From positions 1-64,000 of IMG/VR virus record IMGVR_UViG_3300031140_000597: 64,000 nucleotides of DNA. One strand, 5' to 3'. Position 1 is the first letter of the stretch, and each line of letters begins with the position of its first letter. Of this stretch, positions 52,425 to 62,994 are shown piece by piece. Both the position numbers and the translations under genes were made by a program. Origin of the DNA: an uncultured virus (IMG/VR IMGVR_UViG_3300031140_000597) (lineage: Duplodnaviria > Heunggongvirae > Uroviricota > Caudoviricetes). The notes below the pieces were generated by a model. That model was not told the DNA's origin, ran no database searches, and saw only the letters and a program-made list of their open reading frames with translations.

Positions 52425-52594
52425 TGGCTAGATTTAGTGAGTTTAAGCATTGGGTACAATCCATGTGGTATGATCATAAGCGCGAAAAGATTGAGTGGGA
52501 AGGTAGTCCACCAGATTACGGTTTTCGTACGTGGGTTAACATGAACAAATGGTTCATCAAGCGTATGTGGAAAGCACGTAACGAAGAATCATAA
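52424..52594 (+). CDS. small Trp-rich hypothetical protein (56 aa)
   Basis: TAATG coupling; MARFSEFKHWVQSMW... Confidence 0.6.
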   Translation: MARFSEFKHWVQSMWYDHKREKIEWEGSPPDYGFRTWVNMNKWFIKRMWKARNEES

Positions 52595-52650
52595 GTTTAT
52601 ATTAGACAGAACTGTAACGTATATCTGACCTTGTTCTAGACAAAAGGGTT

Positions 52651-52768
52651 TGGGTTGTAGCGCAGTCTGGGAGAAGCGTCTATCCTCGGTGATGTAGCAT
52701 TAGATTAATTACCTAATACCCTGCATTACATAGATAGAAGGTCGTGGGTTCGAATCCCTCCAACTCCG
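52651..52768 (+). tRNA. tRNA-Pro-like element with about 41-nt insertion in the anticodon loop (intron-containing or pseudo-tRNA)
   Basis: GTAGCGCAGTCTGG D-arm, CTATC/GATAG anticodon stem, GGTTCGAATCC T-arm; no CCA. Confidence 0.6.
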
Positions 52769-52819
52769 TTAGAGTTTTGTCTAATATAAATATAGTTTAA
52801 CTAAGCGTAGGGAAAAGTA

Positions 52820-53197: not shown

Positions 53198-53246
53198 TAT
53201 AACATAAACAGTTAAAGATAACTGTAATAAACAAGAGAACGAAACG

Positions 53247-53360
53247 ATGTTAAACACATTCTGTAATTTACATAGTAAACTAGATAGTCAACGCTGGTAT
53301 CAGCCGGAGATTATGAATGTGCCCGCGAGTTTCTTAGACGAGGATGATGGATTATATTAA
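53247..53360 (+). CDS. putative attenuator leader peptide (37 aa, MLNTFCNLHSKLDSQRWYQPEIMNVPASFLDEDDGLY)
   Basis: lies between promoter and terminator; contains all 20 amino acids; its 3' part is complementary to the terminator 5' arm. Confidence 0.7.
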   Translation: MLNTFCNLHSKLDSQRWYQPEIMNVPASFLDEDDGLY

Positions 53361-53386
53361 GCCATTAAATCCAATAAATTTCTAAG

Positions 53387-53420
53387 AAACCCGCCAAGCG
53401 AAAGCAAAGCGGGTTTTTTT
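53387..53420 (+). terminator. intrinsic terminator / attenuator upstream of tRNA block 1
   Basis: AAACCCGC...GCGGGTTTTTTT. Confidence 0.85.
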
Positions 53421-54821: not shown

Positions 54822-54826
54822 CTTTT

Positions 54827-54925
54827 TATCTTGTTGCTTAATTAAAGCAGTGGAATCCCTCATACATCGTCAATGCTATGAGAATGATGTTTCCATGCAT
54901 GTAGGTGCAAATCCTACCAAGATAA
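54827..54925 (+). ncRNA. tRNA-like element with 35-nt anticodon loop
   Basis: TATCTTG/CAAGATA, D-arm GCTT/AAGC, TGGAA/TTCCA, T-arm GTAGG-TGCAAAT-CCTAC. Confidence 0.55.
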
Positions 54926-54936
54926 ATTATTTTTAA

Positions 54937-55142: not shown

Positions 55143-55466
55143 ATGGCAATTACATTATCTAAAGAAGCATCAGAGCGCATATCAGATTACATGATCAACA
55201 GAGGACCTACGTACGGTGTACGTGTAGGTGTAAGAACAACAGGTTGTTCTGGTCTTGCATACATAGTAGAGTTTGTCGATAATATTGACGAGAATGATAC
55301 AGTCTTTGTATCAAATGAAATAAGTATTGTAGTAGATCCTAAAGGTTTAACATACCTTGACGGTACTGAGTTGGATTATGGACGTGATGGACTCAACGAA
55401 GGATTCAGATTTAATAATCCAAACGCAAAAGACGAATGCGGTTGTGGCGAAAGTTTCACTGTATAA
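55143..55466 (+). CDS. iscA: A-type Fe-S cluster carrier IscA/HesB
   Basis: GVR.GV.TTGCSGLAY, LDG.ELDY, F.F.NPN...ECGCGESF. Confidence 0.95.
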   Translation: MAITLSKEASERISDYMINRGPTYGVRVGVRTTGCSGLAYIVEFVDNIDENDTVFVSNEISIVVDPKGLTYLDGTELDYGRDGLNEGFRFNNPNAKDECGCGESFTV

Positions 55467-55626: not shown

Positions 55627-55655
55627 TTGACAATAGTTAATAAGTTTGATATAAT
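55627..55655 (+). promoter_or_regulatory. sigma70 promoter of ncRNA/tRNA block 2
   Basis: TTGACA-N17-TATAAT with AT-rich UP-like repeats (AAATAGTTTA). Confidence 0.8.
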
Positions 55656-55665
55656 AGTAGAACAA

Positions 55666-55694
55666 GTTGAGAGATCAACACGCTCTTTAAAAAT
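55666..55694 (+). promoter_or_regulatory. rrn-like boxB-boxA antitermination site
   Basis: GTTGA-GAGA-TCAAC GNRA hairpin followed by CGCTCTTTAAAAAT. Confidence 0.7.
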
Positions 55695-55700
55695 AGTTTG

Positions 55701-55796
55701 TTTTAATATGTATTATTGTTGATGAAAGTAGGGCTTGATGTTGGAAGTAGAACCATTAAGGTGTCTGACGATAGTTAACAATAATATATTTTAAAA
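55701..55796 (+). ncRNA. stem-enclosed small RNA candidate 1
   Basis: long inverted repeat ATGTATTATTGTTGA / TTAACAATAATATAT around an approximately 50-nt core. Confidence 0.45.
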
Positions 55797-55812
55797 TGAA
55801 TTAAAATAGTTA

Positions 55813-55841
55813 TTGACATTGTTATGAAACTTTGTTATACT
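55813..55841 (+). promoter_or_regulatory. sigma70-type promoter
   Basis: TTGACA-N17-TATACT. Confidence 0.75.
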
Positions 55842-55853
55842 ATTAAAGTGTTC

Positions 55854-56005
55854 TTTTGTATACACATTAGGTAGATACTGATTTTAGTAGGTATGGTGAT
55901 TCGTGCTGAACGTTGAAGGGAATCGCTAAATGACAAGGGACTTGCTGTGTGGGATTAATCATCCCTGTCGTAGACAAGCGGTTGTTAAATAATGTGTATG
56001 CAAAA
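55854..56005 (+). ncRNA. structured ncRNA, paralog A
   Basis: TTTTGTATACACATTA/TAATGTGTATGCAAAA closing stem; core shared with paralog B. Confidence 0.6.
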
Positions 56006-56015
56006 GTGTATTTTA

Positions 56016-56161
56016 ATATATGCTATTGGGTAGAGCCAGATCGTAGTAAGCATAAGGGTGCGTGCTGAAATTTGAAGGGAATCGCTGAACGACAATAGGT
56101 TTAATGTATACAGACTAATCCCTGTATATTGGAACCAACGATAGTTAAACGATAGTATATT
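56016..56161 (+). ncRNA. structured ncRNA, paralog B
   Basis: ATATGCTATTG/CGATAGTATAT closing stem; CGTGCTGAA..TTGAAGGGAATCGCT.AA.GACAA core. Confidence 0.6.
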
Positions 56162-56189
56162 TTAAAGTTTATTTTAAATAAAGTTTAAT

Positions 56190-56265
56190 TCCTGAATAGC
56201 TCAGTTGGTAGAGCAGTAGACTGTTAATCTATTTGTCGTTGGTTCGAGCCCAACTTCAGGAGCCA
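56190..56265 (+). tRNA. tRNA-Asn(GTT)
   Basis: canonical cloverleaf, loop CTGTTAA, GCCA. Confidence 0.93.
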
Positions 56266-56439: not shown

Positions 56440-56446
56440 TTTTTTA

Positions 56447-56581
56447 AAGTAGTATTAAGTAGTTACCCTAGCGGCTCATAAGAGAGAGTCGGTTCATTGC
56501 ATATAGTTACAGTTATGTGTAGTCAGCGAAATGTGCATCTGTAAGTGCATGTAGACTCGGCTAACTTCTTAATATTATTTT
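56447..56581 (+). ncRNA. multibranched structured RNA candidate
   Basis: AAGTAGTATTAAG/CTTAATATTATTT closing stem with three internal hairpins. Confidence 0.45.
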
Positions 56582-56582
56582 T

Positions 56583-56658
56583 GCTGACGTAGCTCACTCG
56601 GGAGAGCGCGACCCTGTCAAGGTCGAGGTAGTGGGATCGAAACCCATCGTTGGCGCCA
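56583..56658 (+). tRNA. tRNA-Asp(GTC)
   Basis: CGACC-CTGTCAA-GGTCG, GCCA. Confidence 0.92.
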
Positions 56659-57058: not shown

Positions 57059-57128
57059 ATCATCATTTGCCAATTGGTAAGGTTAGGCGAAGTAGTCGTT
57101 ACTGGTTCGATTCCAGTTGGTGATACCA
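57059..57128 (+). ncRNA. CCA-ending tRNA-like RNA with a collapsed anticodon arm
   Basis: ATCATCA/TGGTGAT-ACCA, D-loop AATTGGTAA, ACTGG-TTCGATT-CCAGT; no 5-bp/7-nt anticodon arm. Confidence 0.6.
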
Positions 57129-57135
57129 ATTTTAA

Positions 57136-57208
57136 TGCGGGATGCTAAGGTATGCACTCCGGGCTCATAACCCGCGAGGTTGAGTTTCGATTACTCTTTC
57201 CGCTACCA
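57136..57208 (+). tRNA. tRNA-fMet(CAT), initiator-like
   Basis: GGG/CCC anticodon stem, loop CTCATAA, 1:72 mismatch, CCA. Confidence 0.8.
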
Positions 57209-57291: not shown

Positions 57292-57338
57292 CTATAATTT
57301 ATTTTTGTATAAGATTTGTCTTATACATTTACAGAAAT

Positions 57339-57429
57339 CGCTTCTGTTATCGTGACATACAACGACAACGATAGCGTTACACTCGTAACAAATACATGTT
57401 AATTATGCGAGTTGACGATAACAGAGGCG
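57339..57429 (+). ncRNA. long hairpin RNA with central bubble
   Basis: 15-bp stem CGCTTCTGTTATCGT/ACGATAACAGAGGCG plus inner ACTCGTA/TGCGAGT. Confidence 0.45.
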
Positions 57430-57438
57430 GCGCTATTC

Positions 57439-57643: not shown

Positions 57644-58375
57644 ATGAATAGTTTGTTTGAATACACAGAAGCAGTAGAAGAGTGCAAAGGTTCGTTAGAA
57701 GGTGATGGTGATAATAAGTTATTTACCGAAGCAGAGCGTGTTCTATCTACTGAAATAAACAACGAAGAAAAGATATTAAAGCATCCGATATTACATGAAG
57801 CGTTTGATCGCATCGTAGAGCAACATGTACCAAATCAATCAACTGCATTTTTATCATTATGCACTGCTACTCGTCCTTATAACAAGAGCAAGAAGTGGAA
57901 AGGATTCATCAACAAGTTTGGTGGTAAGGTAGATATGATAGTTGTATCTAATGGTGGTATGATGCCACAACAGTTTTGGAAAAGTTGGCCCTATTTGAAT
58001 TACGATGGGGGTGATCATTATGATGTTAAAATGTATCAAGATATTATGCATGAACGATTATTGAAGTTTTTTAGGAAGCACAATTACAGTAATGTTATTG
58101 CAAACTTTAGACCTAATTTAATCAATCATCAACCAGCACATGATGCGCTTTCTATTCTGAAAGAAGAAGGTAGCATTGGTGATTATATTGTAATGCCTAA
58201 TCAGGAGTTGTATGATAAGGCACAGTCATTAGGTTGGCGACCACCACAAGGTCAAGGTGATATGTTCCCTGATTTAACCAATACGATACTGAGTGCATTA
58301 ACTGCTCAAGTGGAAGAATTCGGGTATGATGAAGATTTATTTACTGTTCATGAAAAATTAAAGTACAATAAGTAG
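57644..58375 (+). CDS. ArcS-like (DUF5591) protein, putative archaeosine synthase core
   Basis: FLSLCTATRPYNKSK resembles the L.PCS..KPYS.S catalytic-Cys motif of ArcS; VVS.GG..P......P...YD. Confidence 0.6.
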   Translation: MNSLFEYTEAVEECKGSLEGDGDNKLFTEAERVLSTEINNEEKILKHPILHEAFDRIVEQHVPNQSTAFLSLCTATRPYNKSKKWKGFINKFGGKVDMIVVSNGGMMPQQFWKSWPYLNYDGGDHYDVKMYQDIMHERLLKFFRKHNYSNVIANFRPNLINHQPAHDALSILKEEGSIGDYIVMPNQELYDKAQSLGWRPPQGQGDMFPDLTNTILSALTAQVEEFGYDEDLFTVHEKLKYNK

Positions 58376-62379: not shown

Positions 62380-62994
62380 ATGTTAGTACCAACAGTAGTA
62401 GAATCAACAGGACGTGGAGAACGCGCTTATGATATTTATAGTCGCTTGCTTCGTGATCGGATTATTATGCTCAATGGAGAAGTAAACGATCACACCGCAA
62501 ACCTAATCGTAGCACAGATGTTATTTTTGGAATCAGAAAATCCATCAGAAGACATCAATTTTTACATCAATAGTGGCGGTGGTTCTGTCACCGCTGGACT
62601 TAGTATCTATGATACTATGCAGTATATCAATTCACCAGTGTCTACCATCGTAATGGGACAAGCGTGTTCAATGGGATCATTGTTATCGCAAGCGGGCGCT
62701 CCAGGAAAGCGATTTGTTTTACCTAACAGTCGTACTATGATTCATCGTGTTAGTTCGGGCACTCAGGGTACACGTGGTAGTATTCATGTACAAGAACTTG
62801 AGTTTGAAGATGCAAAGCGACATATGGATGAGTCAGTTAATTTGAACAATCGTCTTACGCAGTTGTATGTAGATCATAGCAGCAAAGGAAAATCATTTGA
62901 TGAGTTTTATGCTACTATGAAGCACGACACTTTCATGTCAGCACCAGAAGCAGTTGAATTTGGTCTTGCTGATAAAGTGATTGCTAAGATCTAG
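62380..62994 (+). CDS. clpP: ATP-dependent Clp protease proteolytic subunit
   Basis: [31 protein letters not shown] (Ser), MIH (His), D.FMS..EA..FGL.D. Confidence 0.95.

Follow-up and report, generated by a model that had tools for sequence, protein, structure and literature searches.

Two stem-closed RNAs, each of about 160 nt, stand in tandem on the plus strand of a phage tRNA array, and we consider it very probable that they are real structured RNA. They belong to an uncatalogued family that has a fold of its own and falls within a kind already known but still without explanation, the stable RNAs of tRNA arrays. They are referred to as units A and B, and the 64,000-nt stretch of uncultured viral DNA that was analysed is referred to as the window. 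A first-pass annotation had placed two such units here; both are present, and slightly longer than it had given.

The tandem units and their setting

The features of the region are as follows.

55627-55655, plus strand: 12/12 promoter of unit 0
55700..55795, plus strand: unit 0, an upstream stem-closed RNA
55813..55841, plus strand: sigma-70-type promoter before unit A, 11/12 with extended -10, by consensus match only
55845..55851, plus strand: 7-nt direct repeat, second copy at 56003-56009, bounding the unit A segment that is missing in strain L031
55850..56008, plus strand: unit A, with closing stem P1, arm 1, junction and arm 2
55870..55927, plus strand: arm 1 of unit A, with invariant base GGUAGA/AAUCGC, short helix, tandem G.A and U.C
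55886-55889 with 55908-55910, plus strand: putative non-canonical AGUA/GAA bulged-G motif of unit A, read from the sequence, under a 6-bp hairpin
55898..55900, plus strand: loop 1 triplet G-A-U of unit A, a predicted kissing partner
55932..55986, plus strand: arm 2 of unit A, with loop triplet A-U-C at 55958-55960
56009..56168, plus strand: unit B, a paralog of A with a different closing stem
56029..56086, plus strand: arm 1 of unit B, with AGUA at 56045-56048, GAA at 56067-56069 and loop triplet G-G-U at 56057-56059
56091..56146, plus strand: arm 2 of unit B, with loop triplet A-U-C at 56118-56120
56190..56265, plus strand: tRNA-Asn(GTT), first gene of the tRNA run

Units A and B fold better than their shuffles (z -3.92 and z -3.84), match each other in sequence with an E value of 1.6e-9, and are each closed by a different long stem of 17-18 bp, as the first-pass annotation had read them. 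Its statements that the pair contains no open reading frame and no tRNA fold also hold, in that no ORF of at least 50 aa overlaps either unit (nine ORFs of 20-39 aa overlap 55690-56190) and no tRNA is called in them. The Rfam comparison that it had called for gave no match at E≤10 within 55780-56185, and no family reaches its Rfam 15 gathering threshold for either unit. A weak YrlA score at 56135-56245 (20.7 bits against a cut-off of 69) lies mostly on tRNA-Asn. A reading of the pair as a MITE was rejected, the terminal stems of A and B being unrelated.

The promoter that had been noted at 55813 before copy A is present (TTGACA-17-TATACT, extended -10) but is not unique to the pair, given the perfect site upstream, and the region holds 8 promoter-like sites against 4.3 ± 2.1 in shuffles. 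No terminator lies between the units and tRNA-Asn, and the tRNA run continues directly. Contigs from two RNA runs of one study, X18 and X19, in which about two thirds of the sampled words are present, span the promoter, unit A and most or all of unit B, and also cover neighbouring protein genes; being assembled contigs, they cannot show ends, strand or level. A further RNA run, X20, covers essentially the tRNAs only.

Unit 0 also folds better than its shuffles (z -4.33). It has its 3' end and closing stem in common with unit B, to whose end its 3'-terminal 29 nt are 90% identical, and its core is shorter and different. Within it lies an AGUA...GAA stretch whose UUGAU loop resembles that of the strain allele L026A, and both of our covariance models, R1 and R2, miss the unit. 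It is possibly a shortened relative of the A/B family.

The virus record from which the window is taken measures 75 kb and is estimated to be 21% complete. Because a near-identical record of 192 kb is estimated to be 52% complete, the full genome would measure ~360 kb. The capsid and portal are of T4-like type, the closest cultured-phage match to the RNase H is that of Pseudomonas phage PA5oct (51%), and the phage DNA is found in marine metagenomes; the phage is a marine PA5oct/Rak2-like jumbo phage. Its host is probably a proteobacterium, since the IscA, IscS and IscU encoded by the phage belong to the ISC type of proteobacteria. Host-derived genes at window positions 55143-55466, 57644-58375 and 62380-62994 and in record G001 encode IscA/IscS/IscU/NfuA, ClpP/ClpX/ClpS, IF3 and MetK, and the set also includes FolE/QueE-like proteins, a DUF5591 (archaeosine-synthase-related) protein and many radical SAM enzymes.

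The array around the two units comprises at least 18 tRNA genes and holds further structured elements. A promoter-led non-coding leader at 53220-53420, with a strong terminator hairpin at its end, precedes the first tRNAs. The RNA at 52592-52794 measures 203 nt, is closed by a long stem and has a T-arm-like hairpin on its 3' side; its Rfam tRNA score is weak (24.7 bits), and it is 99% identical in strain L238. The element at 54826-54930 is tRNA-shaped with an enlarged middle arm and was missed by ARAGORN; its 75% identical homolog in G004, a record of a related phage, has an Rfam tRNA score of 43.6 bits. More stem-closed multibranch units stand between tRNAs at 56444-56583, where an RNA-library contig has other sequence in its place, and at 57337-57431. 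Two degenerate tRNA-like genes at 57059-57205 score 26.4 and 20.6 bits, under the Rfam cut-off, and in the segment 59170-59370 tRNA-Ala(TGC) is encoded by two identical genes, whose upstream leader is also repeated.

Relatives, alleles and copy number

Six distinct sequences of the family are available, with pairwise identities of 51-91%: units A and B of the window, three strain variants and one diverged homolog. Identical copies occur in three viral records, the strain variants were found in four metagenome contigs (L026, L031, L069 and L091), and the homolog, L132, lies in G004, whose phage shares with that of the window proteins that are mostly 45-77% identical. L132 likewise adjoins tRNA-Asn, but downstream of it and in the middle of the array, whereas the units of the window are promoter-proximal.

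Pattern scans of viral sequences returned true members in 3 of 8, 3 of 9, 4 of 62 and 4 of 22 stretches, and a further scan gave four among the 80 listed of 98 matches; all of these are identical copies, with the exception of L132. In the metagenome scan 5 of 69 stretches were true members, and in the GTDB scan neither of two. Four look-alikes (L112, L114, L124 and L127) were dropped, one of them having been read by eye as the antisense of a protein gene and the others judged alike. With the arm-1 covariance model R1, no match below E 0.1 was obtained in 50 related records, of which 13 hold any tRNA and 4 hold six or more, and none in 30 further records (mostly short fragments, two of them unrelated) or in six cultured jumbo phages, including the PA5oct genome. 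A blastn search against cultured phages and plasmids yielded chance matches only. As the strains carry two copies or one, and four related arrays of 6-12 tRNAs carry none, the family is rare and accessory.

In strain L031, unit A is absent exactly between the 7-nt direct repeats, so that the promoter stands directly before unit B, and the contig of a close strain runs from IscA to tRNA-Arg without either unit and ends soon after. Alleles also differ in blocks. Arm 1 of window unit A differs at 5 of 58 positions from the paralogous allele L026B and at 15 positions from its own allele L026A. The long identical block of A and B had been taken for a conserved core; on these counts it is mostly recent gene conversion between the paralogs. 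A 26-nt block common to A and B occurs twice in the window and in none of 100 shuffles. In unit B of L069 the upper part of arm 2 is wholly replaced, with its A-U-C triplet kept.

Other modules of the array behave comparably. The segment 56181-56269 with tRNA-Asn is 98.9% identical over 89 nt to the tRNA-Asn of G004, while close strains carry a very different allele and tRNA-Asn alleles are also swapped in blocks, and we conclude from this that tRNA-array modules are exchanged between lineages. Two strains have a stem-closed RNA after unit B that is not in the window (unit C, L026:1641-1806 and L069:2115-2265); one internal hairpin is fully replaced between them and the remainder kept, and unit C has no real Rfam match.

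A conserved rod and a candidate clasp

Arm 1 is conserved in all six sequences as a segment of 58-60 nt that reads GGUAGA, nine bases, UAGUA, a hairpin of 5-7 bp, GAA, nine bases and RAAUCGC. About 20 invariant bases cluster at the junction, and the stems vary. When the two 9-mers are set face to face they form a short helix, in which C-G, G-U and G-C pairs replace one another, followed by tandem G.A pairs (5/6) and a small pyrimidine-rich loop; a U.C pair (5/6) lies below the AGUA/GAA element, which would adopt a bulged-G or S-turn motif. We infer these non-canonical elements from the sequences, and the bulged-G assignment leans on established knowledge of the motif and on a published account (PMC7583486).

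The canonical pairing of arm 1 can be assessed more directly. Across five sequences, 90.7% of 75 cells are paired, compared with 35-50% in slid controls; 5 of the 15 pairs are altered on both sides, and the covariation score is reached by 3 of 500 shuffles, which with five related sequences constitutes support, not proof. RNAalifold, unprompted, returned identical arm-1 helices, and in the diverged homolog L132 the base of arm 1 forms with a probability of 0.99. For the internal loop as a whole, the chosen register (29/60 paired) is no better than others (0.35-0.52). Two contigs from RNA libraries carry an A-to-C change at 55877, which turns an A.G mismatch into a C-G pair. The proposal of a structured non-coding RNA family with variable stems, outside Rfam, is supported, and the arm-1 pairing survives block substitutions.

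The sequence motifs that had been listed as shared fared unevenly: all are present in the two window copies, but several are not features of the family, CCCTGT being kept in 4 of the 6 sequences and the second of two adjacent pentamers being altered in two. The interpretation of these pentamers as T-loop motifs is not supported, since only 1 of 12 fits the consensus AGAGA/UGxRA (PMC7583486). The first UGAA consists of the last stem base and the GAA strand of the putative bulged-G motif, and the second pentamer is part of the paired rod and is not conserved.

At the tip of arm 1, loop positions 3-5 read G-R-U in all six sequences, and the loop of the 3' half, or arm 2, holds an invariant A-U-C, also in all six. 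Counted from the bases of their arms, the triplet of arm 1 stands at 28-29 nt and that of arm 2 at 26-27 nt. That G-R-U is always complementary to the invariant A-U-C suggests that the two loops form a kissing-loop clasp, a contact predicted from the sequences. The triplets are kept although the stems beneath them are replaced (L026A and L069B). Three consecutive pairs in one register in all six sequences arise in 0 to 10 of 20000 loop shuffles, a test that was devised post hoc on data already seen and that ignores common ancestry; a plain longest-duplex test of the loops is not significant (p 0.18-0.58). Variation in the triplets is one-sided (A-U to G-U), and a fourth loop pair forms in three sequences, as U-A or C-G, but is broken in the other three.

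With no credit given to non-canonical pairs, four A/B-type sequences fold in the two-arm model at a cost of 2.2-3.1 kcal/mol over the optimum; for window unit B the cost is 8.5 kcal/mol. For L132 the energy model prefers another 3' half, with a short hairpin that has A-U-C in its loop. Since the long arm 2 would cost ~10 kcal/mol there, and the L132 fold as a whole is no better than shuffles (z 0.46), arms of equal length are not a family-wide feature. Neither is a long perfect closing stem, such as the 17-18-bp stems of A and B that had been likened to RNase III substrates, because the closing helix of L132 is shorter and interrupted.

Possible roles and known systems

We favour, tentatively and with somewhat less than even confidence, a reading of A and B as processed, stable, compactly folded RNAs whose clasped arms, S-turn and invariant junction form a binding surface, and which act as a decoy or scaffold. 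The two units would be transcribed by the host sigma-70 polymerase as the head of the tRNA operon and, on our reading of the layout, cut out of its transcript. Each RNA would then be a junction of the closing stem with two arms of ~25 nt per strand. Arm 1 would be an irregular rod with tandem G.A pairs and the S-turn, and its G-R-U tip may pair with the A-U-C tip of arm 2, so that the arms are clasped side by side or neighbouring molecules are linked. The invariant junction bases and the S-turn grooves (S-turn grooves are described as surfaces for protein or RNA contacts in PMC7583486) could present a shape-specific surface to a protein or another RNA, and from a binding surface of specific shape it would follow that the RNA serves as decoy or scaffold in infection, rather than as guide or message. 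We infer the processing, the three-dimensional clasp, the binding partner and the role; the model is built on six related sequences from two phage lineages only. One candidate partner is an Sm-like WYL_2 protein in G001 (L298:475-846), the sole RNA-binding-type fold seen there besides IF3. Pfam scans detected no Nop, fibrillarin, L7Ae, TROVE or Hfq family among 201 ORFs of G000 and G001, a set that leaves out one ORF of 3432 aa, edge-cut ORFs and most ORFs below 90-100 aa.

A bolder proposal, which we regard as rather unlikely, sees in the pair a new class of ~150-nt phage RNA that works with the tRNAs of the phage during infection; either complementary 'hands' on the two arms let A and B assemble, without protein, as homo- or hetero-rings or cages, or the clamped invariant junction is a new catalytic or ligand-binding core. 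Taken by itself, protein-free self-assembly into rings or cages, made of A, of B or of both, by loops that pair between molecules is the main rival to the decoy or scaffold reading, and an unlikely one. Every loop 1 triplet could pair with every loop 2 triplet, and the short loop-2 hairpin of L132 suits an intermolecular contact. Precedents exist: ROOL and GOLLD both lie near phage tRNA islands, and a kissing loop of ROOL that was at first regarded as a tertiary contact turned out to be intermolecular (PMC12286853), while manA RNAs shorter than 200 nt assemble by kissing loops into 8- to 60-mers (10.64898/2026.07.01.735769). However, manA has no sequence match to A/B, a single contact of 3-4 bp is found here where known cages have several, and the equal arm lengths of A and B suit an intramolecular clasp. 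A new class of self-cleaving ribozyme for trimming the transcript of the tRNA operon, with the junction as active site and the loop contact as peripheral clamp, is possible, has no direct support and appears improbable to us. Hammerheads have a peripheral loop clamp of this kind, and ~20 invariant bases at a junction of variable stems would suit an active site. Theta ribozymes are reported to adjoin phage tRNAs. Yet no Rfam ribozyme matches at E≤10, whether hammerhead, HDV-like, twister, pistol or hatchet (theta models may be outside Rfam), the units are promoter-proximal in the window while the homolog lies downstream of tRNA-Asn in G004, and the tandem copies precede a tRNA 5' leader with no obvious need for processing. 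That the units are functionless duplicated spacer DNA, with stems that merely aid processing, is very improbable: they are rare and dispensable, and the RNA data are contigs rather than discrete transcripts, but compensatory changes and invariant unpaired motifs persist across sequences that are only 51-66% identical.

Three further readings compare the units with known RNA-guided, tRNA-binding or ligand-binding elements. For a bipartite guide RNA of the TIGR, IS110 bridge or box C/D type, whose two 9-nt segments, on either side of the arm-1 hairpin, would direct a phage enzyme to DNA or RNA by base pairing, there is little probability. The two segments have fixed spacing and differ in blocks between near-identical strains, but tRNA-Asn alleles are likewise swapped in blocks, and the segments are paired to one another and show compensatory changes. 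Perfect 7-nt antisense matches to tRNAs exist for 5 of 10 segments where 1.9 would be expected, a result reached by 1 of 200 shuffles, but the positions of the matches are unrelated, and this was one of 12 tests, on segments that are not independent. CCA and UG boxes are absent, the flanks being AGA/UA and GAA/RA in all six sequences; there is no excess of matches to E. coli rRNA, used as a proxy for that of the host, and the listed tandem matches in 300 kb of phage DNA are all mismatched. A partner protein could be missed because half of the genome is unsequenced; still, none of four records contains IS110 domains, and the lone weak Nop score, in G004 (13.5 bits against a cut-off of 25.4), belongs to a sulfotransferase-like protein, whose fold has no counterpart in what is sequenced of G000 and G001. 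A T-box-like element that binds tRNA, through anticodon recognition by the triplet behind the S-turn or through T-loops docked on the tRNA elbow, is to our minds scarcely probable. The location in a tRNA array would fit, and the order after GAA, a single base, then a triplet, then an invariant G, resembles that of a specifier followed by a conserved purine (PMC7583486). Apart from the T-loop count given above, this reading is opposed by the restriction of UGGNACC, the T-box sequence of the antiterminator bulge, to 2 of 6 sequences, by the lack of a terminator and of any Rfam T-box match, by the tandem G.A pair, which explains the invariant G, and by the equally long strand that faces the triplet. 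Least probable is a cis-acting ligand sensor that resembles the P2/P3 half of the lysine riboswitch and tunes the tRNA operon. The predicted combination of an S-turn arm with kissing loops, and the position between promoter and tRNA run, speak for it; against it, RF00168 has no match at E≤10 in either of two records, no terminator or expression platform is seen, the 17-18-bp closing stem would lock the fold, and the homolog lies mid-array.

Stable RNAs in the tRNA arrays of T4 and T5 have been annotated 'unknown function' for decades, and recent cryo-EM work has revealed that some phage RNAs, even short ones, build cages via kissing loops. Members of the A/B family are short, and their natural alleles swap whole stems while keeping the loop triplets and the junction, which makes them a ready set of constructs. 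The clasp model makes a sharp prediction, namely that triplet swaps should break and rescue the fold or the oligomer. The weight of the finding is limited by its rarity, with two phage lineages and an uncultured host. Our literature search found no description of the A/B RNA, although motif tables in supplements could still hold one.

Among the known systems, TIGR arrays and IS110 bridge RNA share with A/B two variable segments of ~9 nt flanking a hairpin, in tandem stem-closed units. TIGR spacers of 8-12 nt are flanked by box C (CCA) and box D (UG), as defined in PMC12045711, whereas A/B have no box C/D motifs and their segments pair with each other. No Tas, IS110 or Nop protein was detected in 4-5 records, the best of them being 52% complete, and the Pfam models are distant from the Nop domains of Tas proteins. 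T-box stems I and II would resemble A/B in the putative S-turn motif and in the triplet and purine after the GAA strand, but A/B have no double T-loop or antiterminator, and their loop is symmetric and partly paired. In the P2/P3 domain of the lysine riboswitch, a long loop E arm stands beside a second arm and their tips kiss, an architecture that A/B would share. A/B differ from it (RF00168) in having no model match, no five-way junction, no K-turn, no ligand-pocket helices and no expression platform, and in being locked by a long stem. GOLLD, ROOL and manA (RF01745) are phage RNAs whose assemblies are held by kissing loops (sources cited above); none has an Rfam match to A/B, GOLLD and ROOL are 4-6 times longer, and A/B have one candidate loop-loop contact. 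PA5oct expresses four non-coding RNAs of unknown function (PMC7318152).

The closest parallels are RNAI, RNAIII, RNAIV and RNA2H of T5 (AY543070) and RNA C and RNA D of T4 (AF158101), which like A/B are non-tRNA RNAs in phage tRNA arrays. They are not homologous to A/B, with no sequence or model match, and the AGUA...GAA hairpin occurs in none of six T5 RNAs examined. These stable RNAs measure 103-172 nt, are in some cases adjacent to one another and are annotated as of unknown function, and most of them fold as stem-closed multibranch structures. As far as can be judged from sequence, units A and B would fit this kind, being non-coding, stem-closed and laid out for co-transcription with the tRNAs, with no terminator in between.
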